Origin: Candidatus Ruminimicrobiellum caprinum
GTDB lineage: Bacteria; Elusimicrobiota; Endomicrobiia; Endomicrobiales; Endomicrobiaceae
Direction of reading: 5' to 3'
Assembly: GCA_017413305.1 (NCBI GenBank)
Contig: JAFPUA010000158.1
Span: forward strand, 1-39,049
DNA: 39,049 nt
Part shown: piece after piece, positions 4,009 to 37,677 of the stretch
Numbering within the stretch: the stretch's first letter is position 1
How the letters are laid out: the number at the start of each line of letters is the position of its first letter
The notes under the pieces: model-generated
The model's input: only the letters and a program-made list of their open reading frames with translations
Told to the model about the DNA's origin: nothing
The model's database searches: none
Program-made: the position numbers and the translations under genes

Positions 4009-6474
4009 ATGGAAGTTTTTTCTTTGGTAGGAAAAATAGCTGTAAATTATTCGGATGCTATATCTAAGATTGATAAAGTATCAAATGCCGCCGATGATGC
4101 CGCCGATTCATTAAATGATGTTTCTGATGCAGCAGAAGATTCACAGAACCCTATTAAGGGTTCTGGAAATGCCGCTTCTGATGCGGATAGCAAATTTTCA
4201 GCATGGCAACTTACTCTTGCTAATCTTGCTGCAAATGCTATTCAAGGCATTATAAACAAGGTGGTTGAACTTGGTAAAAAATTAGGTGAATTTGCCGCTG
4301 CAAGTGTTTCTAATTTTGCGGAATTTGAACAGTTAGCCGGTGGAACTGAATTAATGTTTGGTGAAGCGGCTGAATATGTGATGAAGCAATCTGAAAAAGC
4401 TTATAAAACTGTTCAAATGTCACAGAATGATTATCTGCAACAGGTCAACGGTTTTGCTGTTGGCTTGAAAACCGCTTTGGGCGGTAATGAACAGGCGGCA
4501 GCGGAATTAGCCCATAAAATCATTACAGCGGAAGCCGATATTGTAGCCGCAACCGGCAACAGTCAGGAAGCGGTTCAAAATGCCTTTAATGGCATAATGA
4601 AAAGTAATTATACCATGCTGGATAACTTGCAGCTTGGTATTACACCGACAAAAGAAGGTTTTCAGGAAGTCATTGATAAGGTTAATGAATGGAATGCCGC
4701 AAACGGTAGAGCAACCCATTATCAAATTGAAAACCTTGCCGATTGTCAAGCCGCCCTTGTGGATTATGTAGAAATGCAAGGGTTAGCCGGTTATGCTTCC
4801 AATGAAGCCGGTTCAACTATTCAAGGTAGTTGGTCAAGCGTTTTAGCTTTATTTGATAATATAAAAACCAAAGTTGGTAAGCAGCTTGCCCCGGTGGTTA
4901 TGAATTTCCTTCAACAGCTATCCGCATGGATGGATAATGTTGATTGGGATGAATTCGCCGCTAAACTTGGTGAATCTTTCGGTGCTTTAACTGAATGGAT
5001 AAGCCAAATTGATTTTACAACTTTCTTCCAGAAAGCAAAGCAAGGTGTAACATCTTTTGTTGAAAAACTTGGTGATCTAATAACAAAGGTCGTTTCCGTT
5101 ATCAATTCAATACATGGTTTTTCAGAGAAACTAAAAGAAATTTGGCCTATTATCCTTGGAGTGGTAACGGCAATAGCAAGTTTTTCAGCGGGTTTGAAAA
5201 TTGTTAGTATCATTAAAGGTGTTGCAACCGCCCTTTCCGGTTTATGGGGTGTTCTTATGGCTAACCCCATTATTGCTATTGTTGCGCTGATTGCTGGTTT
5301 GGTGGTTGCCGTTATACATCTTTGGAACACCAATGAAGATTTCCGAAATGCTGTAATTGCTATTTGGAATGCTATCAAAGGCGCTTTTCAGTCTGTAGCG
5401 GAAGCAATTAAGAATGCTTGGAATTCTGTTAAGGAAAAAACTATTTCTATTTGGAATTCCGTTAAGGAAACGGTTACTAATGCTTGGAACACAATTAAAA
5501 GTGTTGTTCAAGTTGGTGTAATGCTGATTAAGGAAATTCTTACCGCTGCATTTAATCTTATCACTTTACCTTTCCGGTTTATTTGGGAGAACTGCAAAGA
5601 TGTAATAATTACGGTATGGAACGCTATTAAATCTTTTATTTCCAATGCAATTCAAAATATCAAAGATACTGTTACTGAAAAGTTCAATGCTGTTAAAGAT
5701 ACTGTTTCAACTATTTTTAATGCGGTCAAAACCTTTATTATAAGCGTCTTTTCCGCTATTTGGTCGGTAGTAAGTGATAAGCTGGAAAATATCAAAACTG
5801 CTTTTTCCACAAAACTTCAAGCCGCATGGTCAACAGTTAGTTCAATCTTTAATAGCATTAAATCAACTGTAACAAGTATTATTACTTCCGTTTGGTCGGT
5901 AGTAAGTGATAAGCTGGAAAATATCAAAACTGCTTTTTCCAGCAAGCTTAATGCAGCGCTTTCAACTGTATCTTCTATTTTTGAATCTATCAAAAGTACG
6001 GTACAGAGTAAAATTGATGCTGCTAAAGAAGCTGTAAGAAGTGGAATTGAACAGATGAAATCATTCTTTAATTTCACTTGGAGTTTACCACATATTAAAC
6101 TTCCGCATTTTTCAATAAGTGGAAGCTTTAGCCTTAATCCACCTTCCACACCGCATTTTAGCGTTGAATGGTATAGGAAAGGTGCTATTCTTACTAACCC
6201 GGCTATATTTGGGTTTAATCCTTATACCGGAAAGGCTATGGGTGCGGGTGAAGCTGGTAATGAAGCAATAGCCCCTATTGATACTTTGCAGAAATATGTG
6301 AAAGAAGCTGTTGCGGAAGAAAATACCGCAATGCTTGAAATACTCAGTGCAATTCTAAGCATTGTTTCAAGTATTGATGAAAATATGGCTGATAGCTTGT
6401 ATCATGCTTTGCTTGGATTGCAGTTCAAAGTGAATGATAGAGAATTTGCAAGGTTAGTAAAGGCGGTTAGTTAA
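4009..6474 (+). CDS. Tail tape measure protein
   Basis: The largest ORF (821 aa), helical and repeat-rich (W-N-x-I-K type repeats), with hydrophobic central segments. It sits between the chaperone and distal tail genes. Confidence 0.85.
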   Translation: MEVFSLVGKIAVNYSDAISKIDKVSNAADDAADSLNDVSDAAEDSQNPIKGSGNAASDADSKFSAWQLTLANLAANAIQGIINKVVELGKKLGEFAAASVSNFAEFEQLAGGTELMFGEAAEYVMKQSEKAYKTVQMSQNDYLQQVNGFAVGLKTALGGNEQAAAELAHKIITAEADIVAATGNSQEAVQNAFNGIMKSNYTMLDNLQLGITPTKEGFQEVIDKVNEWNAANGRATHYQIENLADCQAALVDYVEMQGLAGYASNEAGSTIQGSWSSVLALFDNIKTKVGKQLAPVVMNFLQQLSAWMDNVDWDEFAAKLGESFGALTEWISQIDFTTFFQKAKQGVTSFVEKLGDLITKVVSVINSIHGFSEKLKEIWPIILGVVTAIASFSAGLKIVSIIKGVATALSGLWGVLMANPIIAIVALIAGLVVAVIHLWNTNEDFRNAVIAIWNAIKGAFQSVAEAIKNAWNSVKEKTISIWNSVKETVTNAWNTIKSVVQVGVMLIKEILTAAFNLITLPFRFIWENCKDVIITVWNAIKSFISNAIQNIKDTVTEKFNAVKDTVSTIFNAVKTFIISVFSAIWSVVSDKLENIKTAFSTKLQAAWSTVSSIFNSIKSTVTSIITSVWSVVSDKLENIKTAFSSKLNAALSTVSSIFESIKSTVQSKIDAAKEAVRSGIEQMKSFFNFTWSLPHIKLPHFSISGSFSLNPPSTPHFSVEWYRKGAILTNPAIFGFNPYTGKAMGAGEAGNEAIAPIDTLQKYVKEAVAEENTAMLEILSAILSIVSSIDENMADSLYHALLGLQFKVNDREFARLVKAVS

Positions 6475-8284: not shown

Positions 8285-10225
8285 ATGTCTAATCTTCATT
8301 TAGTTACCGGGTATGCCGGTGTTGAACACGTTACTTCCAATGACCACGGTTCACTTAATGCCGCTATCATGGGGAATGGTGAATTTGTTCTTGAACGGGG
8401 TAACCAATTTGCTGCAAGCATTCAATCTAATAATAAGGTTAGGGTTCTTGATGGTGATATGCTTATGCAAGGTAGGCATATTAGACTTAAAGAAAACACC
8501 TATGTTGATCTAAACTTTGATAACGGAACACAAGGTTACAAGCGCCTTGATTTAATTGTTGTACGTTATTCAAAGAGTTCAACCACAGATGTTGAAGAAG
8601 CAAATCTTGTAGTTATCAAAGGTACACCTTCTGAAACATCTTATAATGTACCTGATAAAATTACCGGGGATATTCTTAACGAAAGCGCACTTGAAAATGA
8701 TACCGTTCTTTACAGGGTGAAATTTGATGGGCTGAATATTCAGCCGCTTGAAAAGGTGTTTGAAACAATTACCACCTTGGAAACCCTTGAAGAAGATATT
8801 CAAGATACTATTGATGAAATGGTTGAAGATGCGGAAGAAAGGGTTTCAGAAGCAATAGGGCAGCTTTGCACCTTAACCATTACCACGGATGAAAGATTGA
8901 TTGGTTTATCTATAACCTGTACTAATGGGGAAGATACCTTTACCAAAACAGTTCCAGATACTAAAAAAGTTGTTTTCAATCTTCCTTCCCTTGGAACATG
9001 GACGGTTAATAACCCGGTTAAGCAGCAAACCAAAAGTGTTGTCATGCAGTATTACGGGGAATATAACCTTGAACTTTCTGGATATACAAAGCTTTCTGCA
9101 ATCATTGATTTCAGTAAGTCAAACCCTGATTCCATGGTTACTTATGCGGATGAACTTGAAGGATTTACCAAGAAAAGTGACGCAATTCTTAGCACCCCCA
9201 TTTTTGCAGCTTTGAAGAATTGTGTTCTTAACAATGGTGAAGTTGTAAAGTATTTGAACAAATCCAATTTCAGCAAGTATGAAGATGATACTTCTTCTGA
9301 CATTACCACTCTTGGTAATGATGTTATGCTTGAAATTGGGAAGCGTCTTGGTTATCTGATTGAATGGATTGATTCTAATAAGCTGAAAGTTTCCGTAACA
9401 GACAAACCCAATGATGCGGCTTATAAGTATGATGCTTTTTCACTGGATAGCTATAACGATTGCGATAAAATTTATATCGGTGTTTATAAAGGCTATGCAA
9501 GCGGAAATAAGGTTTATAGTTCCAGCGGTAAAGCGCCGACAGTTTCACAGACTATAACAACCTTCCGTTCTTGGTGTAGGGCAAGGGGTGACGGTTACCA
9601 ACAGCGCACATGGGGCAGCGTTAAACTCATGCAATGCCTGTATATTCTTTATACCGGAAACCTTAATTCACAGTCTGCTATTGGTTATGGCTATGTTAAT
9701 TCAAGTCATAATGCTGGCGTTAATACAGGTGGAACAAATGCTTATGGGTTCAATTCAGAAGTAATCAAAGGAACTAATCCTTCTTATATGACAGACCAAA
9801 ATCATCAAGTCAAGTGCCTTGGTATTGAAGATTTTTGGGGTAATTATTGGGAATTTGTTGATGGGCTTCATTCCGGGGCTAACAGGCAGATTCTTACTTG
9901 TGATATTGCCGCTAATTTCAATACAAGCGGTTCGGGATATGAAGATAATGGTAATGGCGGGGTTTCCGCTGATCTTGGAAATTATATGAGTATGGTTCAA
10001 GGCGGTTCAAATGCTGGATTTACCCCTAAAACTGTTAGCGGTTCTGAAACTACTTATCTATGCGATTATGCTTATTTGAGGGTGTCTTGTCTTGCTATTT
10101 TCGGTGGTGCGTGGAATAATACGGGTGGAGCCGGTGCTTTTCGGCTTGATCTTAGTTACGCTGATTCTTTATCCGGTGCCGGTGTCGCTTGTCGCCTGAT
10201 GTTTATGCACAAAGAAACAGCTTAA
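8285..10225 (+). CDS. Tail fibre / receptor-binding protein, DGR target (VR at its C-terminus)
   Basis: 646-aa ORF at the end of the tail block. The last ~47 codons (...YLRVSCLAIFGGAWNNTGGAGAFRLDLSYADSLSGAGVACRLMF...) match the downstream TR, with differences at TR adenines. Confidence 0.8.
   Translation: MSNLHLVTGYAGVEHVTSNDHGSLNAAIMGNGEFVLERGNQFAASIQSNNKVRVLDGDMLMQGRHIRLKENTYVDLNFDNGTQGYKRLDLIVVRYSKSSTTDVEEANLVVIKGTPSETSYNVPDKITGDILNESALENDTVLYRVKFDGLNIQPLEKVFETITTLETLEEDIQDTIDEMVEDAEERVSEAIGQLCTLTITTDERLIGLSITCTNGEDTFTKTVPDTKKVVFNLPSLGTWTVNNPVKQQTKSVVMQYYGEYNLELSGYTKLSAIIDFSKSNPDSMVTYADELEGFTKKSDAILSTPIFAALKNCVLNNGEVVKYLNKSNFSKYEDDTSSDITTLGNDVMLEIGKRLGYLIEWIDSNKLKVSVTDKPNDAAYKYDAFSLDSYNDCDKIYIGVYKGYASGNKVYSSSGKAPTVSQTITTFRSWCRARGDGYQQRTWGSVKLMQCLYILYTGNLNSQSAIGYGYVNSSHNAGVNTGGTNAYGFNSEVIKGTNPSYMTDQNHQVKCLGIEDFWGNYWEFVDGLHSGANRQILTCDIAANFNTSGSGYEDNGNGGVSADLGNYMSMVQGGSNAGFTPKTVSGSETTYLCDYAYLRVSCLAIFGGAWNNTGGAGAFRLDLSYADSLSGAGVACRLMFMHKETA
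10063..10204 (+). repeat. DGR variable region (VR)
   Basis: Gap-free 142-bp alignment to 10328..10469 (offset 265). By hand count there are 26 mismatches, and 25 of them fall at positions that are A in the TR. Confidence 0.9.
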
Positions 10226-13851: not shown

Positions 13852-14889
13852 TTAATTAGTGATTAGTTCAATATTCTTTCTCAGTTCATCAATGTTTTTA
13901 TGGGTATAAACTCTTTCGCCGGTTTCCTTAGATTTATGACCCATTAACCTATCAATACAAACCTTATTTGCCCCGGCTGAATCAAGCCTTGATCTAAAGG
14001 TATGCCGGGTTTCATGGGGTGTATGTTCCATTTCAAGTTGCTGCATTAAGGTGTTCCAGATTTCCCGGTATTGACTAACGCTTAGTTTCTTTCCTTGGTA
14101 TTCAAACAGGTAACCGCTTTTAGATTGGTTTATCCGTTGTTCAACTATAGGTTGAATTTTTGAATGAATCGGAACAATCCGGTTCTTTCCCGCCGCTGTT
14201 TTAGTTCCCCCGGTAATAGTCTTTTCCTTTTGGTCAATATTTGAAATCTTAATTTCAAGAACTTCCGAAATTCTAAAACCGGTGTAAAGGAAGAAAGCTA
14301 ATGAATCTGCATAAGGTAATTGCTGGTTATCCCAAACCCGTTTTACTTCTTCATCTGTGAAAATCGTTTTAGTAGTTTCCGGGATGCTTTCAGAAGTCAG
14401 AAGGTCAGAACAGCATTTTTGAATAATGTCTAATTCAGAAGCAAACCGGTCAAGATGCCCCCAAAGGTTTTTAATTGCCCCTTGTGTGCTGTACCCATGT
14501 CCACAATTATCAATGCAATCTTGCATATGATAAGATTTGATTTGGTTATAGCGGTATTTTTCATATTTTTGACAATGCTTATAAGCTGATTTTAAAGAAC
14601 AAAGGTTTGATCTACCAAGTTTAATAGCACGTTTTTCAAGCCAAAGTTCATAAAGTTCTTTTAAGGTGATCTTTGCAGCGTCTATATCCCATGGGGATTT
14701 GTTGTATTCCGCAAGCATGATTAACCCGGCTTCTTTGGTTTCCGTATAGCCGATATTGATTAGAATGGGATAACCTTTTTCATTCTTCCCATTGCTTTTC
14801 CTTACCGCCCATGGTTTACGGCGATTTCCAGACAGCTTAACAACTGTACCATATCCATTAGGATTTTTCATGATTTCATTCCCTTTCAT
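13852..14889 (-). CDS. int: Tyrosine integrase
   Basis: Contains TGFRISEVLE (box I Arg), HETRHTFRS (HxxR), LMGHKS and VYTH (catalytic Tyr). The probable true start is the ATG at 14871 (MKNPNGYG), which has the RBS aaaggga. Confidence 0.9.
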   Translation of the reverse strand: MKGNEIMKNPNGYGTVVKLSGNRRKPWAVRKSNGKNEKGYPILINIGYTETKEAGLIMLAEYNKSPWDIDAAKITLKELYELWLEKRAIKLGRSNLCSLKSAYKHCQKYEKYRYNQIKSYHMQDCIDNCGHGYSTQGAIKNLWGHLDRFASELDIIQKCCSDLLTSESIPETTKTIFTDEEVKRVWDNQQLPYADSLAFFLYTGFRISEVLEIKISNIDQKEKTITGGTKTAAGKNRIVPIHSKIQPIVEQRINQSKSGYLFEYQGKKLSVSQYREIWNTLMQQLEMEHTPHETRHTFRSRLDSAGANKVCIDRLMGHKSKETGERVYTHKNIDELRKNIELITN

Positions 14890-15015
14890 TGACTTTTGGG
14901 GATGAAGTGATTATAATGAACAGTGCATAGCCCATAGAAATCATTTCATCCTTGGTTTCTTTGGTTATTCATCCCGCCCGGTTGACTGTTGCAGCAGTTG
15001 ACCGGGCAATTTTTT

Positions 15016-15219
15016 GTTCCGCTATGTTCCGTTGTTCCGCATGATTTCCTTATACTGTATATTATATATTTTCTTTTTATTTCCTTGAAAGGTTTTATAA
15101 GGTTCTTATAAGGTTATTTAATAAGAACATTGTAAGTTAATCGGAACAGCGGAACAAATTATAGATTTATTAGTATTTTAAGCGGAACAGGCAACGGAAC
15201 AACAGAGGAACAGCGGAAC
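15016..15219. repeat. GTTCCG/CGGAAC motif array A: 3 forward copies, AT-rich core, 5 exact plus 2 degenerate inverted copies
   Basis: GTTCCG occurs at 15016, 15026 and 15034. CGGAAC occurs at 15142, 15150, 15183, 15195 and 15214. Degenerate copies are aGGAAC at 15206 and CGGAAt at 15227. The region is an ORF-free intergenic stretch. Confidence 0.7.
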
Positions 15220-15221
15220 AG

Positions 15222-16033: not shown

Positions 16034-16134
16034 AGGGCAAAACCCCCTTTCATGGTTGTATCTTGATTTTAACATATATTTTATTGAAGTTCAATTATTT
16101 TTGAAATTGTATCTTAAAAATATTAATTTACCTA

Positions 16135-16163
16135 TTGACAACTAAAAAGAGAAGTGTTATATT
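16135..16163 (+). promoter_or_regulatory. Early rightward promoter candidate (TTGACA-17-TGtTATATT)
   Basis: The -35 TTGACA is at 16135..16140, the spacer is 17 nt, and the -10 TATATT is at 16158..16163 with an upstream TG. Confidence 0.55.
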
Positions 16164-16183
16164 TGTATCGCAATCAGATACAA
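16163..16183. promoter_or_regulatory. Operator-like palindrome TTGTATC-N7-GATACAA
   Basis: Perfect 7-bp inverted arms abut the -10 element. The same TGTATC-N7-GATACA palindrome recurs at 18246..18264, and TTGTATC half-sites occur at 16056 and 16107. Confidence 0.5.
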
Positions 16184-16319
16184 GAAATTTTATCAGTATC
16201 TAAAAAGCGCACAATCCAAGTAATATTGCTAAATAAGAACAGAAACCAAGGATGAAACAAATACCCCCCCGCTGCTGCAACAGTGAGGGGGGAACGGAAA
16301 AAAAGAAAGGGGTATTTGA

Positions 16320-16949
16320 ATGATTAGCTTGCAACCCGTTATTGAACAGCTTGAAAACCTGTTTGAACACTTTAACAAACATTTCTTTGAAGGGAAGCTT
16401 CCCAAACCAGTTATCACGGTTAGCCCGGATGATACTTCATGTGGCGCTTATGGTTGGTGTACAACCTTTAAGATTTGGGCTGATAAGGCCGGGGCTAAAG
16501 AAGATGAAGGATATTATGAAATCAACCTTACTTCTGAAAACCTTTCTCGCCCTTATGAAGCTGTTGCCGGTACACTTCTTCATGAAATGGTACATCTTTA
16601 TAATCTGGAACAGAAAATTCAAGATTGTTCTCGAAAAGGCACTTACCACAATAAGAAATTCCGGGATGCTGCTATTGCACACGGCTTGAAGGTTGAACAA
16701 ACTGATAAATACGGTTGGAGCAAAACAAGCCTTACCGATGAAACCAAAGCTTACCTTGATACCCTTGGAGTAACTAAGTTTGATCTTTATCGGAAGCCCG
16801 TTCCCAAATTTGGAAAAGCTGCTTCAAAGAGCAATTCAAGAAAGTATGTTTGCCCGGATTGCGGCGCTATCGTGAGAGCAACCAAGGAAGTTCACATTAT
16901 TTGTGGTGATTGTGATACTGAATTTGTAGAAGAAACCGGGGAAGATTAA
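16320..16949 (+). CDS. SprT-like zinc metallopeptidase domain protein with C-terminal zinc ribbon
   Basis: HExxH in LLHEMVHLYN, and a C-terminal CPDCG...CGDC. Confidence 0.7.
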   Translation: MISLQPVIEQLENLFEHFNKHFFEGKLPKPVITVSPDDTSCGAYGWCTTFKIWADKAGAKEDEGYYEINLTSENLSRPYEAVAGTLLHEMVHLYNLEQKIQDCSRKGTYHNKKFRDAAIAHGLKVEQTDKYGWSKTSLTDETKAYLDTLGVTKFDLYRKPVPKFGKAASKSNSRKYVCPDCGAIVRATKEVHIICGDCDTEFVEETGED

Positions 16950-16982: not shown

Positions 16983-17171
16983 ATGGATAATTTTGAAAGA
17001 TGGGTAATTATCGGTGAAGATGGAAATGGGAAAATAAGTATCTTTTATAAAACCACGCTTCCCGGTGACCAATACACCCTTAACGAAGCTATCAAAGATA
17101 TTAAAACATTTGATGTAACTATACTTGCAGTTTTCCAAGAAAAAGATATTATCAGGCGTTGTCAATTATGA
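16983..17171 (+). CDS. Hypothetical protein
   Basis: 62-aa ORF with an RBS (gaaaggat) upstream. Confidence 0.3.
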   Translation: MDNFERWVIIGEDGNGKISIFYKTTLPGDQYTLNEAIKDIKTFDVTILAVFQEKDIIRRCQL

Positions 17172-17821
17172 AAGGAAAGGTGATCTTCATTAGGGTTTTA
17201 ATTGCTTGTGAAGAATCACAAGTAGTTTGTAAAGCTTTTCGGGAATTAGGGCATGAAGCATATAGTTGTGATCTGGAAGGGTGTTCCGGTGGTTACCCGG
17301 AATGGCACATTCAAGCGGATGCTTTAGAACTAATTAAAATCAAATGGGATTTGATAATTGCACACCCGCCGTGTACCTTCCTTAGTAATGCCGGGGCTTG
17401 CCGAATGTACCCACATAAAGGGGAAATTGATCTTGAACGGTATCAAAAAGCCCTTGAAGCAAAAGCCTTTTTCATACGGTTCTTAAATGCCGATTGCCCC
17501 CCGGATAGCGGTTGAAAATCCCCGCCCTTTGAAAGTGGTTGGATTACCGGAAGAAACGCAAAGAATACAACCTTATCAGTTTGGTGAACCTTTTTCAAAG
17601 TTAACTTATCTTTGGTTAAAAAATCCCCCCCCCTAATGCCGACAAAAATACTCAATTCTTATAAACCGTACGTTTCTTGTGGTACAAGTGCAAACAAAGG
17701 AAATCCAGATAAAGCCGGTGTTAGTCGTGCGGGTGGAGCGGCAAAAATTAGGTCAAAAACATTTCCCGGTGTAGCTAAAGCAATGGCGTTACAATGGGGA
17801 AATTTGGAAGGGGGTGTAAGT
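17159..17821 (+). pseudogene. C5 DNA cytosine methyltransferase-like gene broken into three frame segments at poly-C tracts
   Basis: Segment 1 (17159..17515) carries AHPPCTFLS (PC motif). Segment 2, in another frame, reads (IA)VENPRPL...IQPYQFGEPFSKLTYLWLKN. Segment 3 (from about 17633) reads PLMPTKIL...RSKTFPGVAKAMALQWG. The frame changes coincide with C6 (17497..17502) and C9 (17625..17633). Confidence 0.55.
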
Positions 17822-18019
17822 ATGAAGAAAATTAAAGTTGCTTGGATTGAACAGATTCTTGAATTTGATTCTGTTGAAGAAGCAACCGGGTACAGAAAAA
17901 GCTTGGAAACCGGTAGACCCCAAAAGTTCAAGATTCTTGATGAAAGAATCATTGAAAGTGGTAAGGTAGAAATCAGAATTAGAAAGCAGTATAACAACAA
18001 TGCTTTCCCGGATGATTGA
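17822..18019 (+). CDS. Hypothetical protein (internal ATG with its own RBS, in frame with the last methyltransferase segment)
   Basis: The RBS ggaaggggg lies 6 nt upstream of the ATG at 17822 (MKKIKVAWIEQ...). Homologous methyltransferase-like proteins, as I recall them, end near QWG. Confidence 0.3.
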   Translation: MKKIKVAWIEQILEFDSVEEATGYRKSLETGRPQKFKILDERIIESGKVEIRIRKQYNNNAFPDD

Positions 18020-18688: not shown

Positions 18689-19630
18689 ATGGTCAAAGGT
18701 TATAAGGCTTTTGATAAAGATTGGGTTTGCCGCCCCTGTTCCGGTGTAAAGAAACAGTATTCTTGCCCCGGAATGTTTGAAACCACAACTAAACCTTCTG
18801 TTTGCAATCATGGAATGCACTTCTGCAAGGAACTGAAAGATGTGTTTGATTACTATTCCAATTCCCCGGAAGAAGTAAGGATTGCCGAAGTGATCGCACA
18901 TGGGGAAGTTGCAGAGCATGGGAACAAGTGCAGCACCAACAAACTTGAAGTTGTGCGGGAAATCCCATGGGAAGAAGTTTACCGCCTTGTGAATGAAGGA
19001 AAAGGCTGTTCTGGTATCTGCAACACCGGCGACTGCAACACCGGCAACCGGAACACCGGCGACTGCAACACCGGCAACCGGAACACCGGCGACTGGAACA
19101 CCGGCGACTGGAACACCGGCAACCGGAACACCGGCGACTGCAACACCGGCAACCGGAACACCGGCAACTGGAACACCGGCGACTGCAACACCGGCAACCG
19201 GAACACCGGCAACCGGAACACCGGCAACCGGAACACCGGCGACTGCAACACCGGCAACCGGAACACCGGCGACTGGAACAAAACAAGCTTTTCTTCCGGG
19301 TGTTTCTGTACAGAAGAACCGAAAATCATGATGTTCAATAAACCTTCTGATTGGACTATGAGAATGTGGTTTGAATCAGATGCCCGTTACATTCTGAATC
19401 AGATTCCTAAGAATGTTGTGGAATGGGTTTGGGAACAGGATATGACCGATGAAGAAAAGGCCGCTAATCCTTCCTATAAGACAACAGGCGGTTATTGCAG
19501 AATCCCGAATGAAAGCGAAAATGCACAACGCTTTTGGGATGGATTACCCGATAATCAGCGGGAAATCATTTATCAGCTTCCCAATTTTGATAAAGAAATC
19601 TTTGAAGCTTGCACCGGTATCAAAATTTAA
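18689..19630 (+). CDS. Pentapeptide-repeat protein (17 x NTG[DN][CRW]) with a Cys-rich N-terminal domain
   Basis: 313-aa ORF. The central region is NTGDC/NTGNR/NTGDW repeated 17 times, and an RBS (gaaaggaagg) lies upstream. Confidence 0.7.
   Translation: MVKGYKAFDKDWVCRPCSGVKKQYSCPGMFETTTKPSVCNHGMHFCKELKDVFDYYSNSPEEVRIAEVIAHGEVAEHGNKCSTNKLEVVREIPWEEVYRLVNEGKGCSGICNTGDCNTGNRNTGDCNTGNRNTGDWNTGDWNTGNRNTGDCNTGNRNTGNWNTGDCNTGNRNTGNRNTGNRNTGDCNTGNRNTGDWNKTSFSSGCFCTEEPKIMMFNKPSDWTMRMWFESDARYILNQIPKNVVEWVWEQDMTDEEKAANPSYKTTGGYCRIPNESENAQRFWDGLPDNQREIIYQLPNFDKEIFEACTGIKI
19022..19276 (+). repeat. 17 tandem 15-bp repeats (aacaccggcRacYgS) inside a CDS
   Basis: Exact 15-bp periodicity from 19022 to 19276. 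The units differ at only 3 positions. Confidence 0.9.
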
Positions 19631-27234: not shown

Positions 27235-29163
27235 ATGGGTTGGACTGGAAACAATACCGCTTTCAGAACTTACATAAAGGGGAAAGATAAAGCTTCCGCA
27301 GAAGCACACAAAGGGAAAGACCATGTAAGAACCTTTGAAGATGCTTCTCAATTCCCTTCCTTTGGTGCTGCTTTGAATGATGGGTTTGTTGATATTTCCT
27401 TTGATACGGAAGAACTTTCAAACAAGTTCCTTGATATTGCCGATAAACACGGCTGGAACTGCTTGATTCTGGAAAACATTGAAAATGGTCACATTCACAG
27501 CATTTGGAAAGATACCAAGCACCGAATTATTAAAGATGGGAGAGATAAAAAGCTTGCTGTTGGCTTAATAGCCGATATTCACAGCGGTTCAACCTATATC
27601 CCTTTACGGGTAAACGGTGTTGATAGATTTCCCCCGTATTTTGACCCGGAAAACACCTTTGATGAAGTTCCTAATGAATTGCTTCCTGTTTCAACTACTA
27701 TTGATCTGCTTGGAATGGAAGAAGGGGATGGAAGGAATGATACCCTTTACCGCTATATTCTGATTCTTCAAAATCAGCTTTATCTTGAAGATGAAGCTAT
27801 TAGGGCGGTTATTCGGAATATCAATGAATTCATCTTAAAAGAACCGCTTTCAGAAGAAGAACTAAGTGTAATCTTACGGGATGAAAGCTTTCAAAAACCT
27901 TCTTTCTTCAAAGGTAATACATTCCTGTTTGATAAATTCGCTGCTTACATTGTCAATATAGCCCATGTTGTTAGTATCAATAATCAGCTTCACATTTACC
28001 GGGATGGGGCTTATGTAACTGGCTATAGAGCAATAGAGAAAATCATGATAAAAAGCATTCCCAATTTGAAGAAAACACAGCGCCGGGAAGTAATTGAATA
28101 CATGGAACTGATAGCAGAAACCTTGAAACCCGCTGATGCCCGGTATATTGCTTTTCGGAATGGAATTTACAACATAGTTGAAAATAGTTTAACACCCTTC
28201 ACCCCTAACTTGGTTATCACTAATAAAATAGATTGGGATTATAACCCAAATGCCTATTCTGAATTAGCTGATACAGTTCTTAACCGGATTTCCTGTAATG
28301 ATCGGGAAGTAAGGCTTTTGCTGGAAGAATGTATTGGTTACTGTTTTTATCGCCGCAATGAACGGGGAAAAGCTTTCATCTTGACCGGTGCAAAATCAAA
28401 CGGTAAATCAACTTTTTTGGACTGTATCAAAACGGTTCTTGGAGCGGATAACATTTCTGCTTTGGAATTGAAAGAATTAGGTGATAGGTTTTCTTCCGCT
28501 ATGATGTTTGGAAAGCTGGCTAACCTTTCGGATGATATAGCAGATGATTTCTTACAGGGAAGCCAAATAAGCACCTTTAAGAAAGTGGTAACCGGTAACC
28601 GGATAAAAGCGGAACGGAAAGGGCAAGACCCCTTTGAATTTGAACCTTATGTGAAAATCATTGCTTCCGCTAATGATATTCCAAGAACAAAAGACAGAAC
28701 CGGGGCAGTTCTTAGGCGCTTGGTGATTATCCCCTTTAACGCAAGCTTTGAACCGCTGCTTCCAGATGGAACACCTAACCCAAACTATGATTCTGAAATC
28801 AAGTATAAGCTGTTTGAACAGGATTGTATTGAATACTTCATTAAGGTTGGTATTGAAGGGTTGCAACGGGTTATAAAGAATGATCGTTTCACAGAACCGC
28901 AAGTTGTAACAGAAGCCTTGAAAGGATATGAAGAAGAAAATAACCCCATTATTGGTTTTCTGGAACAAACGGAACTTGATGAAATCGAAAATGAACCTAC
29001 CCCCGATGTTTACCGGCTGTATCAGGTGTTTTGTGCTGAAAACGGTATGAACCCCATGGGCGCTAAAGAATTCACCAAACAGGTTTGCAAGCGGTTGAAC
29101 ATGGATGTAAAAGATGCAAGGGTGAACGGAAGAAAAACCCGGATTTATGTTAGAAAGGATTGA
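27235..29163 (+). CDS. Primase-helicase (prim-pol-like N-terminus plus P4/D5-family NTPase)
   Basis: 642 aa with Walker A LTGAKSNGKSTFLD and Walker B-like NLSDD. The overall architecture is typical of phage/plasmid P4-family primases. Confidence 0.8.
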   Translation: MGWTGNNTAFRTYIKGKDKASAEAHKGKDHVRTFEDASQFPSFGAALNDGFVDISFDTEELSNKFLDIADKHGWNCLILENIENGHIHSIWKDTKHRIIKDGRDKKLAVGLIADIHSGSTYIPLRVNGVDRFPPYFDPENTFDEVPNELLPVSTTIDLLGMEEGDGRNDTLYRYILILQNQLYLEDEAIRAVIRNINEFILKEPLSEEELSVILRDESFQKPSFFKGNTFLFDKFAAYIVNIAHVVSINNQLHIYRDGAYVTGYRAIEKIMIKSIPNLKKTQRREVIEYMELIAETLKPADARYIAFRNGIYNIVENSLTPFTPNLVITNKIDWDYNPNAYSELADTVLNRISCNDREVRLLLEECIGYCFYRRNERGKAFILTGAKSNGKSTFLDCIKTVLGADNISALELKELGDRFSSAMMFGKLANLSDDIADDFLQGSQISTFKKVVTGNRIKAERKGQDPFEFEPYVKIIASANDIPRTKDRTGAVLRRLVIIPFNASFEPLLPDGTPNPNYDSEIKYKLFEQDCIEYFIKVGIEGLQRVIKNDRFTEPQVVTEALKGYEEENNPIIGFLEQTELDEIENEPTPDVYRLYQVFCAENGMNPMGAKEFTKQVCKRLNMDVKDARVNGRKTRIYVRKD

Positions 29164-29931: not shown

Positions 29932-30122
29932 TGGATGAAACCTATACTATTGAAATCCATTTTGTGAATGGAGATAAGAAAGAAATCCCCGGTGCTTCAA
30001 ATTGGGGTTATCAGAAAGCAGCGGAAGGGAACTATTGCTTTTTCGTTGAAAAGGACAAGCACAGGGATTACTTTCCTTCCGTCAATGTAAACGCTATTGG
30101 AAAGGCCGGTGATTTTAGATGA
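29928..30122 (+). CDS. Hypothetical protein
   Basis: 64-aa ORF with overlapping start and stop codons on both sides. Confidence 0.35.
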   Translation: MMDETYTIEIHFVNGDKKEIPGASNWGYQKAAEGNYCFFVEKDKHRDYFPSVNVNAIGKAGDFR

Positions 30123-30772
30123 TTAAAGTTGAAAAAGTTCAAGTTTGGGGATTTGAACACGCTGTTAGAGGAATGCGGAATCCATATGATTCATGGGAAA
30201 AATCTGATAGCACCTTTTGTAAAGTAACTGATTGTTATAATTGCGATAATACTTATTTGGGGAAACCGTGCTTTGTAATTGGTGCAAATGATCTAAAATT
30301 GATGCGTCAACTTTTCGCCGCTGGAACAGAACACAGGAAGTTTCTTAGACAGATTGTTGTCAGCATGGATATTATCGCCCCTTTCTATTGGTGGAAAGAA
30401 TTTGATACCTATAAAGTTGGCACGGTTGCTAATAGCTGTTCTACCATGCACACGATAGCCAAGAAAGAATTTACCCTTGATGATTTCAGCACGGAACACC
30501 TTACCAATACTTCAATTAAGGTGCTTGGTGATCTGATAAGAACTATGAATGTTTTCCGGGATTCATACCTTAGAAACGGAAACAAAGTTGATTGGTGGCA
30601 GCTTATTCAGCTTCTTCCTACTTCTTATAATCAGAAAAGAACTGTTACTTTCAATTATGAAAACGCTGCAACTATTATCAAGCAGCGGAACAATCATAAG
30701 CTGAATGAATGGAATGATTTCATTGAAGAACTGCTTAAGCTTCCGAATTTAGCAAAAATCATAGGAAAATAG
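30119..30772 (+). CDS. ThyX-like (flavin-dependent thymidylate synthase fold) protein, tentative
   Basis: RGMRNPYDSWEKSDS...EHRKFLRQI.VSMDIIAPFYWWKEFDTYKVGT.ANSCSTMH resembles phage ThyX-like proteins from memory. No canonical RHR motif was seen. Confidence 0.4.
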   Translation: MIKVEKVQVWGFEHAVRGMRNPYDSWEKSDSTFCKVTDCYNCDNTYLGKPCFVIGANDLKLMRQLFAAGTEHRKFLRQIVVSMDIIAPFYWWKEFDTYKVGTVANSCSTMHTIAKKEFTLDDFSTEHLTNTSIKVLGDLIRTMNVFRDSYLRNGNKVDWWQLIQLLPTSYNQKRTVTFNYENAATIIKQRNNHKLNEWNDFIEELLKLPNLAKIIGK

Positions 30773-30781
30773 GCCGTTTTT

Positions 30782-31059
30782 GTTCCGCTGTTCCGCTGAT
30801 TGTTCCGTTAAAGTTGTTTTAGCGGAACAGAGTAAAAGCCTTAATTTACTTATGTTTTTAAGATGCTTGTTCCGCTGTTCCGCTGAATGGTTAATGTTCT
30901 TATATAAGACTTTAGTATATTAAAGTATATAAAAATAATAATATATAGAATATAGGCGATTTTTGCGGAACAACGGAACAGAATGTTAAAAAAGCCTTGA
31001 TTTTACAGGGTTTTTAAGGTGTTCCGCTAAAATCAGCAGCGGAACAAGCGGAACGGAAC
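30782..31059. repeat. GTTCCG/CGGAAC motif array B: 6 forward and 6 inverted exact copies around an AT-rich core
   Basis: GTTCCG occurs at 30782, 30790, 30802, 30869, 30877 and 31021. CGGAAC occurs at 30823, 30966, 30974, 31040, 31049 and 31054. The 18-mer GTTCCGCTGTTCCGCTGA is repeated exactly at 30782 and 30869. Confidence 0.75.
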
Positions 31060-31084
31060 AGATTCTATAGAAAGGGGTGTTAAT

Positions 31085-31504
31085 GTGACTTTCTTTGAAG
31101 CAAAGAAGTATTTGCAGCAAGTAAGGATTCTGAATCAGAACATCAATATAAAAATGCAAAGGCTTTACGAAATGAAGCAACAGCGGCTTTGTATTCCGGC
31201 TAATGACTATTCTAAAGATAAAGTTCAATCTTCTTTGAATGGTGATAATCTTGAAAAATTAATTTCAAAAATCGTTGATCTTGATGAAGAAATAAATACT
31301 TTGATTGATTCTTATGTTTCGTTAAAATGGGAAATCATTAAAAAGCTGGAACGGTTAGAGAATAAGAAGCAGCGAGAAGTTTTGCTTCTAAAATACATAG
31401 ATGGTGAATCTATTTCAGAAATAGCCTTTGAAATGAATTTATCCGCAAACCGGATAAAACAGATAACAAATGATGGAATTATGAACTTTGCAAAAATATC
31501 TTGA
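31085..31504 (+). CDS. Sigma-70 region 4-like late transcription regulator (RinA/DUF1492-like)
   Basis: The C-terminal ...REVLLLKYIDGESISEIAFEMNLSANRIKQITNDGIMNF is a sigma region-4 type HTH. GTG start after the RBS aaagggg. It lies immediately upstream of the packaging genes. Confidence 0.6.
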   Translation: MTFFEAKKYLQQVRILNQNINIKMQRLYEMKQQRLCIPANDYSKDKVQSSLNGDNLEKLISKIVDLDEEINTLIDSYVSLKWEIIKKLERLENKKQREVLLLKYIDGESISEIAFEMNLSANRIKQITNDGIMNFAKIS

Positions 31505-31679: not shown

Positions 31680-32108
31680 ATGATTGCCGTGAATAGAAAA
31701 CAAAAGAAGTTTGCAGATGAATACTTGATTGATTGCAATGCTACACAAGCGGCAATCAGGGCGGGTTATTCACCTAAGACAGCTAAACAGGTTGGTCAAA
31801 GGCTGTTGACAAATGTTGACCTTTCAACCTACATTGAACAGCAACTTGAACAGATTCACAATGAAAAAACCGCTGACGCTCAAGAAGTTCTTGAATATCT
31901 TACCGCTGTTATGCGGGGTGAACACACAGAACAGGCGCTTAGATTAGTTGGTGAAGGTATTCAAACAATAGATACTATGGAAGTTTCAGCTAAAGACAGA
32001 TTGAAAGCCGCTGAATTGATCGGTAAGCGCTATGGAATGTTCAAAGATAATGTGAATGTTGCCGGTTCTATTCCGGTTGTAATTGCGGATGATCTGGAAA
32101 CCGATTAA
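31680..32108 (+). CDS. terS: Terminase small subunit (Terminase_2 type)
   Basis: KQKKFADEYLIDCNATQAAIRAGYSPKTAKQVGQRLL is the characteristic N-terminal HTH of this family. Confidence 0.85.
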   Translation: MIAVNRKQKKFADEYLIDCNATQAAIRAGYSPKTAKQVGQRLLTNVDLSTYIEQQLEQIHNEKTADAQEVLEYLTAVMRGEHTEQALRLVGEGIQTIDTMEVSAKDRLKAAELIGKRYGMFKDNVNVAGSIPVVIADDLETD

Positions 32109-35593: not shown

Positions 35594-37313
35594 TCTTGAT
35601 GCTGAAAAGGTTCTTCTGAAACAACTGCAAGCTTGTTACCGCAAAGCCCAAAGTGATTGTGTTGCCCGGATTCAAGAATTAGCCGGTAGAACTGATATGG
35701 AAAACATTCAGGCTATTGTTTTCCAAGTACAGTATCAGAAAGCTATCATGCAGCAGATAGGCGGTATTCTGGACACGCTGCAAACAACCCAATTTACTTC
35801 CGTTGCGGATTACCTAACTACTTCCTATGAAAATGGGTGGGTTGGTGCTTTCTATGATCTGCAAGGGCAAGGAATACCGCTAATCTTTCCGGTAAATCAG
35901 GAACAGGTTGTTCAAGCAATTCAAAATGATGCTAAACTTTCCAAGTCTTACTATGATAGGCTTGGTGAAGATGTGGCCTTTCTGAAAAAAGCGGTAAAGG
36001 CACAAGTATCACGGGGGATTGCAAACGGTTCTTCATGGTTTCAGGTAGCACAGGAATTACATAACAAAATGACAAACCCTTTCGGTAACGCTTTGTATAA
36101 CGCTATGCGGATTGCGAGAACGGAAGGGCATAGGGTTCAACAGCAATCCCAATGGAACGCTATCAATGAAGCGAAAAAGGCCGGGTGTGATATTGTCAAA
36201 CAGTGGGATTCCACCCTTGACGGAAGGACACGTTCAACCCATGCCCGGTTAGATGGTCAAATCCGGGAAATTGATGAACCCTTTGAAGTGGACGGTAAAA
36301 AAGCAATGTACCCCGGCGCTTTCGGCAGACCGGAAGAAGATATACATTGCCGGTGCTGTTGCGCTCAAAGGGCAAAATGGGCGCTTGATGAAGATGAACT
36401 AAAGATTCTTCAAGAAAGGGCTGATTTTTACGGCTTAGATAAAACCGCTGATTTTGAAGAATTTAAGCAGCGGTTCAATATCGCAACCACTAAGATTCAG
36501 CTTCCTATAGGAAACCCAAACGGGAATTTAGCTGTTGGTTATGGTCAGGATTTCTATTCTGAAATCAGGCAGCGGGTAGCAGATTGCCCCGATGATGCAG
36601 CGGTAAGACTTTGGGAACAGTATGAAGATGCTGTTAAGGTTGGTGACCCCAATTATAAAGGTCGGGCTTATGCACAAGCGGGAAGGGTTTACATTGATAA
36701 GGGTGTTGCCGAAAAAGGAACTTCTTATCAAAACCCGTTTCAGGTTGTTTTCCATGAATGCGGTCATGCTATAGATTACCTTGCCCGGAAGCTTGGTGTT
36801 GGAAGCGGATATTTCTATTCAAGCACCTATGAAAATGGGAAGTTTCCAAAAACAATCCGGGATGAGGTTTCAGCGTGGGTGTCAAGGCTTGATAAACAAT
36901 TCAAAGCAGAGTTCAAAGCCCATAAAGGGGATTATGTTTGGTTACACGACAACGGTTATATTGATGATTGGTTGTTTAGAGTAATGTACCAAGATGGGGT
37001 TTGGACGGGTGGAGATGTAACATATTCTAAAGCACACGCATATGCAGCGGTTGAACGGGAAATAAGAAGTATTCCCGCATTGTCAAGGGCTGATTTATCT
37101 GATATAGTGGAAGGTGCGACAAAAGGCCGGGTTCAAGCTGGGTTTGGTCATGGTAAAAGCTATTGGAGCGGTTCAGATGAAAACTTAGCTACAGAAGCTT
37201 TTGCAGAAATGTTAGATTCCACTTTCGGTAACCCGGATTCCCTTGAAGTAATCAAGAAATACCTTCCTGAATCCTATCAGGTATTTCAAGAAATGCTTGC
37301 CGCTATACCGTGA
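35538..37313 (+). CDS. MuF/SPP1 gp7-like head morphogenesis protein fused to a C-terminal HExxH domain
   Basis: The MuF core is ...ARTEGHRVQQQ...WDSTLDGRTRSTHARLDGQ...DIHCRCC. The C-terminal ~270 aa contain FHECGHAIDY (36753..36767) and ATEAFAEML. The likely start is the ATG at 35553 (MALNKRE). Confidence 0.8.
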   Translation: MELVQMALNKREQEVQQANLDAEKVLLKQLQACYRKAQSDCVARIQELAGRTDMENIQAIVFQVQYQKAIMQQIGGILDTLQTTQFTSVADYLTTSYENGWVGAFYDLQGQGIPLIFPVNQEQVVQAIQNDAKLSKSYYDRLGEDVAFLKKAVKAQVSRGIANGSSWFQVAQELHNKMTNPFGNALYNAMRIARTEGHRVQQQSQWNAINEAKKAGCDIVKQWDSTLDGRTRSTHARLDGQIREIDEPFEVDGKKAMYPGAFGRPEEDIHCRCCCAQRAKWALDEDELKILQERADFYGLDKTADFEEFKQRFNIATTKIQLPIGNPNGNLAVGYGQDFYSEIRQRVADCPDDAAVRLWEQYEDAVKVGDPNYKGRAYAQAGRVYIDKGVAEKGTSYQNPFQVVFHECGHAIDYLARKLGVGSGYFYSSTYENGKFPKTIRDEVSAWVSRLDKQFKAEFKAHKGDYVWLHDNGYIDDWLFRVMYQDGVWTGGDVTYSKAHAYAAVEREIRSIPALSRADLSDIVEGATKGRVQAGFGHGKSYWSGSDENLATEAFAEMLDSTFGNPDSLEVIKKYLPESYQVFQEMLAAIP

Positions 37314-37540: not shown

Positions 37541-37677
37541 TATGCCCGAAAACAGATTAAAGGCGCTTAAACTATGATCTGAATATTACCGCTTGGAACA
37601 GCGGATATACAAATAGTTCCTTGCCGGTGGAAGAAACCACACTTAAAAACAAGGGCAATAAAGAAAGGGTGAAAACC

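Follow-up and report, generated by a model that had tools for sequence, protein, structure and literature searches.

Contig JAFPUA010000158.1 (39,049 nt; hereafter the window, meaning the whole stretch of DNA that was analyzed) carries, 15.6 kb apart, two clusters of the hexamer GTTCCG and its inverse, CGGAAC, termed here array A and array B, and this locus raises the question of which process such clusters serve and which protein reads them. Judged by its gene content, the window is a temperate siphovirus-like genome and not a satellite. Most likely, the arrays are iteron arrays of an origin of the type known from the Staphylococcus aureus pathogenicity islands (SaPIs) and from P4, present in two copies. 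From sequence comparisons, we consider it probable that a primase-helicase encoded by the phage binds the iterons and that array B is a replication origin. In the mechanism that we propose, this protein would read the 9-bp iteron TGTTCCGYT via a C-terminal winged helix, would assemble on the two oppositely oriented iteron sets, melt the AT-rich centre between them and load itself, probably with one hexamer per side, by analogy with the SaPI Reps. Array B, located where the early operon ends, would be the probable main origin, and array A, beside the integrase gene, a second origin or a cis partner comparable to P4 crr, possibly in contact with array B through bound helicase. Physical binding, melting and initiation at the arrays, as well as any interaction between A and B, are what we infer from the features described below.

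Layout of the arrays and the primase-helicase of the window

Array B consists of 12 exact hexamers within 278 bp (30782-31059), of which six are on the plus strand (starting at 30782, 30790, 30802, 30869, 30877 and 31021) and six are inverted (starting at 30823, 30966, 30974, 31040, 31049 and 31054), where about 0.08 would be expected in a segment of this length; the count given in an earlier note on this DNA is thereby borne out. Over the whole window, the hexamer is found 57 times in either orientation, compared to 10.8 ± 3.0 in 100 dinucleotide-preserving shuffles of the window, none of which reached 57, so that the enrichment is non-random also when matched for composition. The true repeat unit, however, is the 9-mer TGTTCCGYT, with 21 matches in the window against 0.55 expected; array B accounts for ten of them and array A for six. 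Other features that had been described for array B are likewise present: an 18-mer repeated exactly at 30782 and 30869, an AT-rich core (30885-30965; 81% AT as opposed to 61% in the window) with two copies of AGTATAT, and, in the two spacers, an imperfect direct repeat, AAAGCCTT(A/G)ATTT, with 75% identity over 32 nt.

The sites of array B are grouped as three, one and two to the left of the AT-rich centre and as two, one and three to its right; both the inner pairs and the outer triplets are forward on the left side and inverted on the right side. Array A has three forward hexamers (15016-15039) and five inverted ones (15142-15219) plus a degenerate copy, GAGGAACAG, and is thus laid out as three forward sites, a core with an AT-rich centre of 102 bp, and six inverted sites. 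The earlier statement that array A matches array B therefore holds for the resemblance as such and for the shared site, but the layout of array A is simpler and lacks the interspersed single inverted sites. The two arrays bracket the whole early/replication module, as had been noted, whereas a 'degenerate copy' placed at 37595-37605 reads TGGAACAGCGGA, has no iteron match and is no better than chance. An Rfam scan returned no family matching the arrays and the spacers are direct, not inverted, repeats; a reading of the arrays as structured RNA was dropped on these grounds.

At segment lengths of 40, 60 and 80 bp alike, no duplex in the 39-kb window is less stable than the centre of array B (z = 3.7-4.4), and the centre of array A ranks third, behind the cI/early intergenic region. 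The second least stable segment (16056-16135) belongs to the region that separates the CI-like gene from the first of the rightward early genes, and presumably corresponds to the lysis/lysogeny switch promoters. For a common orientation of the AT centres toward the downstream genes, in the style of a promoter cassette, the alignment scores are too weak to judge.

The candidate initiator is a protein of 642 residues. On TIGR01613 ('phage/plasmid primase, P4 family'), with a cut-off of 108.7, it reaches 206.7 bits and P4 alpha itself 108.7; its BLASTP match to P4 alpha is at 2e-13. It also matches PDB 7OLA at 1e-40, and a profile made from its last 122 residues matches residues 653-748 of 7OLA at 3.8e-8; 7OLA is PriRep5 of SaPI5 (PMC9371898). 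An AlphaFold model of the last 102 residues, with a predicted local distance difference test score of ~88-92 over residues 40-100, shows two helices followed by two strands, and the C-terminal domain models as a winged helix. The best Foldseek matches of this model were winged helices, namely Orc1/Cdc6 on origin DNA (prob 0.98) and the DNA-binding domain of RFX (prob 1.00; root-mean-square deviation 2.3 Å), with no match at E ≤ 0.001. The origin-binding domain of P4 resembles RFX.

Iterons and helicase C-termini of related phages

A scan of IMG/VR for the double iteron turned up related phages, L005/L010 and L014/L019 (contigs are designated by L numbers), in which both arrays occupy the same two locations; the proteins of these phages are 22-67% identical to those of the window. 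The pair of arrays is also kept in L024, L051 and L043. Arrays A and B of a given phage have the iteron in common, and between phages the iteron differs (three iteron classes); hence, the arrays are conserved functional elements and not the decaying remnants of a duplication, an outcome that the earlier note had left open.

A first set of 32 relatives of the 642-residue protein (44-54% identity) was complemented by a second set of 80 closer relatives (52-65% identity) from a profile-based scan, taken from 556+ helicase relatives in IMG/VR, so that 112 were fetched in total. In most of the 112 with a locus reaching far enough, an array is located 0.2-5.8 kb 3' of the helicase gene (0.2-3 kb in most of the second set). 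GTTCCG was absent from the first set, in which an array of other motifs is found at the same place and with the spacing of array B, i.e., at offsets of ~0/10/20/43/88/97, followed by an AT centre and the mirror half. The iteron of most of these arrays is GGTTCAAG(G/A)T, with TGTTACA in L042, TGTTCA(A/T)G in L047 and GTGTCTGTTTA in L043. The three-site group at offsets 0/~10/~20 recurs in relatives with other iterons. Among the iterons of the arrays in the 112 relatives are GGTTCAAGG, GGTTACGGTT, GGTAACGGTT, GTTACAGTT, GTCTACGGTT, TGTTACA, TGTGACGCA and more, and the 80 closer relatives represent at least ten iteron classes. The helicases of L173 and L174 are 65% identical to that of the window and have the same FTKQVCKRL helix, from which GTTCCG arrays would be predicted for both; the sequence of L173 ends 0.8 kb past the helicase gene, and L174 has only extra coding sequence in the first 1.5 kb and no array within the 3.8 kb covered.

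Identical helicase C-terminal sequences are paired with identical iterons across many contigs, and in helicases otherwise 98-99% identical, the iteron class follows the last ~18-40 residues. The clearest pair is L206 and L209, whose helicases are identical at 615 of 628 positions, with eight of the 13 differences falling within the last 18 residues, in the terminal wing; between the two arrays, identity is 90% overall and complete over ~95 bp of the AT centre, and yet at least 11 aligned iterons are switched from GGTAAC to GGTTAC (GGTAACGG to GGTTACGG). In L188 and L200, the helicases are 99% identical in the core, 100% over residues 541-600 and 82% over the last 40 residues, and the iterons are TTACGG and TTACAG, respectively; in L184 and L179, three changes in the first wing strand accompany AACTACGG and AGTTACAG as iterons. 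The residues that co-vary with the iteron form the wing of the predicted winged helix. At the sequence level, a concerted switch of all sites together with changes limited to one small segment of a protein is the signature of a cognate protein-DNA pair, and in silico the specificity of the iterons appears to be cognate with the C-terminal domain of the helicase. Such natural iteron/wing pairs, GGTAACGG and GGTTACGG with eight residue changes in 18 being an example, represent a data set for the DNA-recognition code of self-loading helicases of the P4/SaPI type, and could be used for designing orthogonal origin/initiator pairs.

In a coarse comparison of the relatives, only the block formed by the helicase gene, the HD gene and orf74 was closer within the GTTCCG class, and the iteron was not tracked by the integrase, the CI-like repressor, the sigma-like regulator or the small terminase. 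This lack of co-variation led us to reject the CI-like repressor, the integrase (through arm sites) and the sigma-like regulator as binders, and leaves the coordinate control of lysogeny and late genes that the earlier note had suggested unsupported. It also bears on the possibility that the arrays are clusters of operator or activator sites for the promoters of int (array A) and of the late regulator (array B), bound by the CI-like repressor, a second HTH_3 protein or the sigma-like protein, with the promoter in the AT centre being looped out. Each array immediately precedes the start of a gene, int (14889) in the case of A and the sigma-like gene (31085) in that of B, and in relatives, too, the array comes right before a gene of the DUF1492 type or a gene for a regulator of ~180 residues. 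Moreover, the -35 elements of extracytoplasmic function sigma factors resemble CGGAAC, TTGAAC and TGTAAC, all of which occur as variants here. However, two types of regulator, DUF1492 and ~180-residue, stand behind arrays with the same iteron, and the variants were rejected as -35-like sites for the sigma-like protein for this reason, the two types being unrelated and the arrays identical. Furthermore, the integrase and the CI-like repressor of the window are 57-58% and 38-41% identical, respectively, to those of GGTTCAAG phages, as opposed to 35% and 22-23% for the GTTCCG phages L010/L019. There is no GTTCCG in the cI/early intergenic region (16076-16320) and no sigma-70 consensus promoter in the centre of either array, and in Alphaproteobacteria, high-GC phages and three published phages it is the primase-helicase gene that the array follows. 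We therefore regard operator or activator clusters as distinctly unlikely; a secondary effect of helicase occupancy on the int and late-regulator promoters is conceivable.

The three published phages are Paenibacillus Wanderer, Staphylococcus PI-Sepi-HH2 and Bacillus BMBtp15, with arrays directly 3' of the primase gene and CTGTTAC, GTCTTATGT and GGTTACAG, respectively, as iterons. In the stretches examined, none of the three records has an annotated array or origin; published genomes of at least three phages would then hold an unannotated origin of the same build. Wanderer (L052) has, in addition, a second repeat cluster, TGAAGG/CCTTCA, upstream of the primase gene (36240-36427), which holds a AAACCCTTGATATGAC box. 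The Wanderer record also helps to evaluate whether array B could be a packaging site (pac or cos), the iterons being sites for the small terminase that flank the cut, as in pacL/pacR of SPP1. Array B is 0.6 kb upstream of the gene for a Terminase_2 small subunit, and GTTCCG arrays are found near terminase genes in several unrelated contigs. The linear Wanderer record, however, starts at the small terminase gene and its array is 1.7 kb inside the right end, and the packaging reading was rejected because of this distance. In addition, arrays with the same iteron occur with different families of small terminase, the iteron type tracks the helicase wing, and packaging would have a second start at the full copy beside int. 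Of all the readings weighed here, we find this one the least credible.

Conserved elements of the arrays are not limited to the iterons. A box, AA(G/C)CCTTGAT (AAACCCTTAT in some), is found ~205-237 bp into arrays made of different iterons (L005, L047, Wanderer, PI-Sepi-HH2, which is L253, and BMBtp15, which is L254), and copies of this type are found in the window at 30834-30848 and 30990-31010. AAGCCTTGAT occurs ~220 bp into array B and likewise in L005, L047, Wanderer and PI-Sepi-HH2. The reverse complement of the AA(G/C)CCTTGAT box resembles the IHF consensus, WATCAANNNNTT.

Comparison with SaPI, P4 and other origins

The earlier note did not recognize the arrays as a described element. 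Their build, however, is that of the iteron origins of the SaPI and P4 types (PMC9371898; P4 GenBank annotation). SaPI origins are formed by 6-12 iterons immediately downstream of rep; these are divided equally between the two sides of an AT-rich region near the centre, and no fewer than two on each side point in opposite directions. The SaPI Reps are self-loading superfamily 3 (SF3) helicases that read the iterons via a C-terminal winged helix, and two Rep hexamers are thought to self-load, one per side (PMC9371898). Array B, with 12 exact hexamer cores, falls within this range, as does array A with eight and a degenerate one; array B also has six iterons, a centre of 81 bp at 81% AT and six further iterons, and its inner pairs and outer triplets are opposed in orientation. 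Like the SaPIs, the window encodes an SF3 helicase with a predicted C-terminal winged helix, matching PriRep5 (7OLA), and both the iteron and the C-terminal specificity vary between relatives. Unlike a SaPI, which is a satellite, the window has its element in a full temperate siphovirus-like genome; its iteron is 9 bp long, the 3-1-2, core, 2-1-3 layout is fixed and has conserved spacer boxes, and there is a second array 15.6 kb away.

That second array finds a parallel in P4. The P4 GenBank record lists 'ori type 1 repeats', TGTTCACC/GGTGAACA, in both crr and ori; crr (4291-4590) is just 3' of alpha, beside attP/int, and ori (9310-9413) separates the early operon from the late sid operon. P4 needs both regions in cis in order to replicate. 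Apart from the same helicase family (TIGR01613; BLASTP, see above), P4 and the window share the presence of two separate iteron regions flanking the early operon, the first adjacent to int and the second where early and late genes meet. The window iteron TGTTCCGC has TGTTC in common with the P4 octamer TGTTCACC, three of eight bases being different, and both orientations are used in each. The six sites of P4 ori are at 0/10/21/43/86/96, as compared to 0/8/20/42/87/95 in the left half of array B, and the central part of array B (two forward sites, a T/A-rich segment, two inverted sites and one forward site) resembles one crr unit. In contrast, P4 has a one-sided ori and a crr that is composed of two direct repeats of 120 bp, whereas both window arrays are two-sided and inverted-symmetric around a long AT centre.

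In P4, looping between ori and crr via alpha has been reported, and looping between two distant arrays of one site, an idea put forward in the earlier note, is by analogy plausible. As a conserved feature, the arrangement in two arrays offers a counterpart of P4 ori-crr that can be tested in Gram-positive phages. We also considered that arrays A and B could be a paired device, in which bound helicase would synapse the ends of the 15.6-kb early module and gate the integrase and the sigma-like late regulator, with the AA(G/C)CCTTGAT box as the site of a second factor; the onset of replication would then be coupled to late transcription and to integrase expression. We view this extended scheme as unlikely, if less so than the operator clusters discussed above.

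Two other types of origin share part of this build. The origins oriL and oriR of Bacillus phage SPP1 are both bound by G38P, and are thus two distant origins in one phage with the same initiator-binding boxes beside an AT-rich region; G38P, however, is not an SF3 helicase, and the sequence and layout of the boxes differ. The iteron origins of theta plasmids (RepA/pi/TrfA) combine short repeats, bound by a winged-helix initiator, with an adjacent AT-rich unwinding element, and handcuffing or looping is possible, but their iterons are usually direct repeats of 17-22 bp on one side and the initiator is not the helicase.

Several observations weigh against the proposal that the helicase binds the iterons of a SaPI/P4-type origin. 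A distance of 1.6 kb and four small open reading frames (ORFs) separate array B from the helicase gene; it is not immediately 3' of that gene as in the SaPIs, or as in Wanderer, PI-Sepi-HH2, BMBtp15, L064, L070, L006, L126 and L009. With respect to the 3-1-2 order, the sites have the opposite polarity to those of P4 ori. The C-terminal profile of the window helicase family does not match 1KA8, the origin-binding domain formed by the C-terminal 100 residues of P4 alpha (671-770), at a significant level (hhalign E = 0.2), and 1KA8 is absent from the top 50 Foldseek matches to the window C-terminal model. The co-varying pairs are metagenomic contigs, several of which are from one sample; in the coarse comparison the HD-domain gene and orf74, which are beside the helicase gene, also segregate with the iteron class, so that linkage is possible there, and the assignment of the protein change to the helicase wing in L206 and L209 holds within the helicase, the protein that was compared in this pair. 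Finally, arrays of GTTCCGCT adjoin SF3 primase-helicases of other families, with C-termini that have no detectable similarity to that of the window helicase. Those with the array directly 3' are of the RepB_primase-DUF5906, PrimPol-VapE and phrog_35358 types, in metagenome-assembled genomes (MAGs) of Alphaproteobacteria, a Methylobacterium contig and high-GC viral contigs (Table 1), and by phmmer the window and the high-GC/alphaproteobacterial GTTCCG arrays have no protein in common, only the gene class, SF3 primase-helicase, being shared.

Clostridia phages, Alphaproteobacteria and high-GC contigs have the same GTTCCGCT iteron despite dissimilar helicase C-termini, which would be accounted for if the arrays were bound by a conserved host factor, or if they were partition or centromere-like sites, and the AA(G/C)CCTTGAT box, common to several iteron classes, could be the site of a host factor. 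However, closely related phages with near-identical flanks use different iterons, which a host factor does not explain, and no ParA/ParB-like gene was seen among the window genes scanned. The recurrence of one iteron in unrelated lineages is, moreover, to be expected if iterons are constrained to (T/G)GTT(C/A)NNN, with which TGTTCACC of P4 also complies, and on sequence grounds we favour such a constrained iteron space as its cause. Binding of a host factor, or a role in partition, is in our view very unlikely. The helicase-bound origin remains the probable reading, and it places the candidate replication origin, or origins, of an uncultivated temperate phage of the Clostridia type.

Genome context of the arrays

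The features of the window are listed in Table 1, together with the GTTCCGCT arrays of other contigs.

Table 1. Positions of array elements and genes in the window, and of GTTCCGCT arrays in other contigs
Feature	Position	Strand	Basis or remark
Array A, three forward iterons	15015..15041	+	Site listing
Array A, AT-rich centre, 79% AT	15042..15141		Third least stable segment of window
Array A, five exact inverted iterons and one degenerate copy	15142..15220	-	Site listing and repeat comparison
Array B, outer left, three forward iterons (TGTTCCGCT, TGTTCCGCT, TGTTCCGTT)	30781..30809	+	Site listing
Array B, single inverted iteron, 42 bp from first site	30821..30829	-	Position kept at 42-44 in L005, L066, L023, L044
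Array B, left spacer with AAAAGCCTTAATTT box, direct repeat of right spacer	30834..30865		Repeat comparison
Array B, inner forward iteron pair (TGTTCCGCTGTTCCGCT)	30868..30884	+	Columns invariant in alignment
Array B, AT-rich centre, proposed DNA unwinding element	30885..30963		81% AT, least stable duplex of window
Array B, inner inverted iteron pair (GCGGAACAACGGAACA)	30964..30980	-	Site listing and alignment
Array B, right spacer with AAAAGCCTTGATTTTACAGGG box	30990..31019		Repeat comparison
Array B, single forward iteron in right half	31020..31028	+	Site listing
Array B, outer right, three inverted iterons, partly overlapping	31038..31060	-	Site listing
P4-family primase-helicase, 642 residues, proposed iteron-binding initiator	27235..29163	+	Pfam D5_N, DUF5906, Pox_D5
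Predicted C-terminal winged-helix domain of helicase: recognition helix AKEFTKQVCKRL, then beta-hairpin wing	28960..29160	+	AlphaFold (AF2) model and Foldseek
Integrase gene	13852-14889	-	Adjoins array A, start at 14889
DUF7666 and pentapeptide-repeat protein gene	18689-19630		15-nt periodic coding repeat (AACACCGGCGACTGC-like)
Gene upstream of array B	30119-30772		phrog_6721, function not assigned
Sigma70_r4/DUF1492 sigma-like gene	31085-31504		Downstream of array B; domain match
Terminase_2 small subunit gene	31680-32108		0.6 kb downstream of array B; large terminase gene next
Two-sided GTTCCGCT arrays of other contigs	L064 1716-1998; L070 590-837; L126 4743-4998; L141 3801-3974; L006 4430-4709; L009 844-1116		

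The integrase gene is to the left of array A, and to its right follow an ORF of no assigned function and the CI-like HTH_3 gene, on the minus strand. The rightward early operon codes for an SNF2 helicase, a PD-(D/E)XK/AAA_24 protein, a DUF669 protein, a protein with a sub-threshold match to DNA_pol_B, the 642-residue helicase, the HD protein and small ORFs; array B starts 1.6 kb past the stop codon of the helicase gene, beyond four small ORFs, at the end of this operon. The gene upstream of array B had been described as 'ThyX-like' in the earlier note, a label for which we found neither a Pfam match nor a significant PDB sequence match; the downstream gene is indeed sigma-like, with a match to Sigma70_r4/DUF1492. 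In a prophage of a Clostridia MAG, L066 (JAZQCS010000114.1, 5860-6200), array B recurs in almost identical form between homologues of orf217 and of the sigma-like gene. Because of this near-identical array and the same flanking genes, the host of the window phage is, as far as sequence can tell, probably a member of the Clostridia.

A further cluster of CGGAAC, at 19049-19264, was rejected as a third array since it corresponds to coding sequence for pentapeptide repeats, with a periodicity of 15 nt. One-strand repeat runs resembling this pentapeptide run are located upstream of the helicase gene in L033, L035, L038, L039 and L047. Outside the three clusters, CGGAAC is found 24 times on the plus strand, as compared to five times for GTTCCG, with CCGGAAC as the commonest context; this excess looks like an effect of codon usage or of strand composition.

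Between the start of int and array A (14889-15015), the plus strand has a near-consensus promoter, TTGACT-17-TATAAT (11 of 12 positions), with a strong terminator behind it, formed by a 14-bp stem (14976-15007) and a T-run; the pair could give rise to an RNA of ~90 nt, antisense to the int leader. Lastly, the adjacent ORFs 17159-17515 and 17612-18019 match positions 16-108 and 194-224, respectively, of the 247 positions of phrog_757 (DNA methyltransferase), and may be a single methyltransferase gene that is split or frameshifted.

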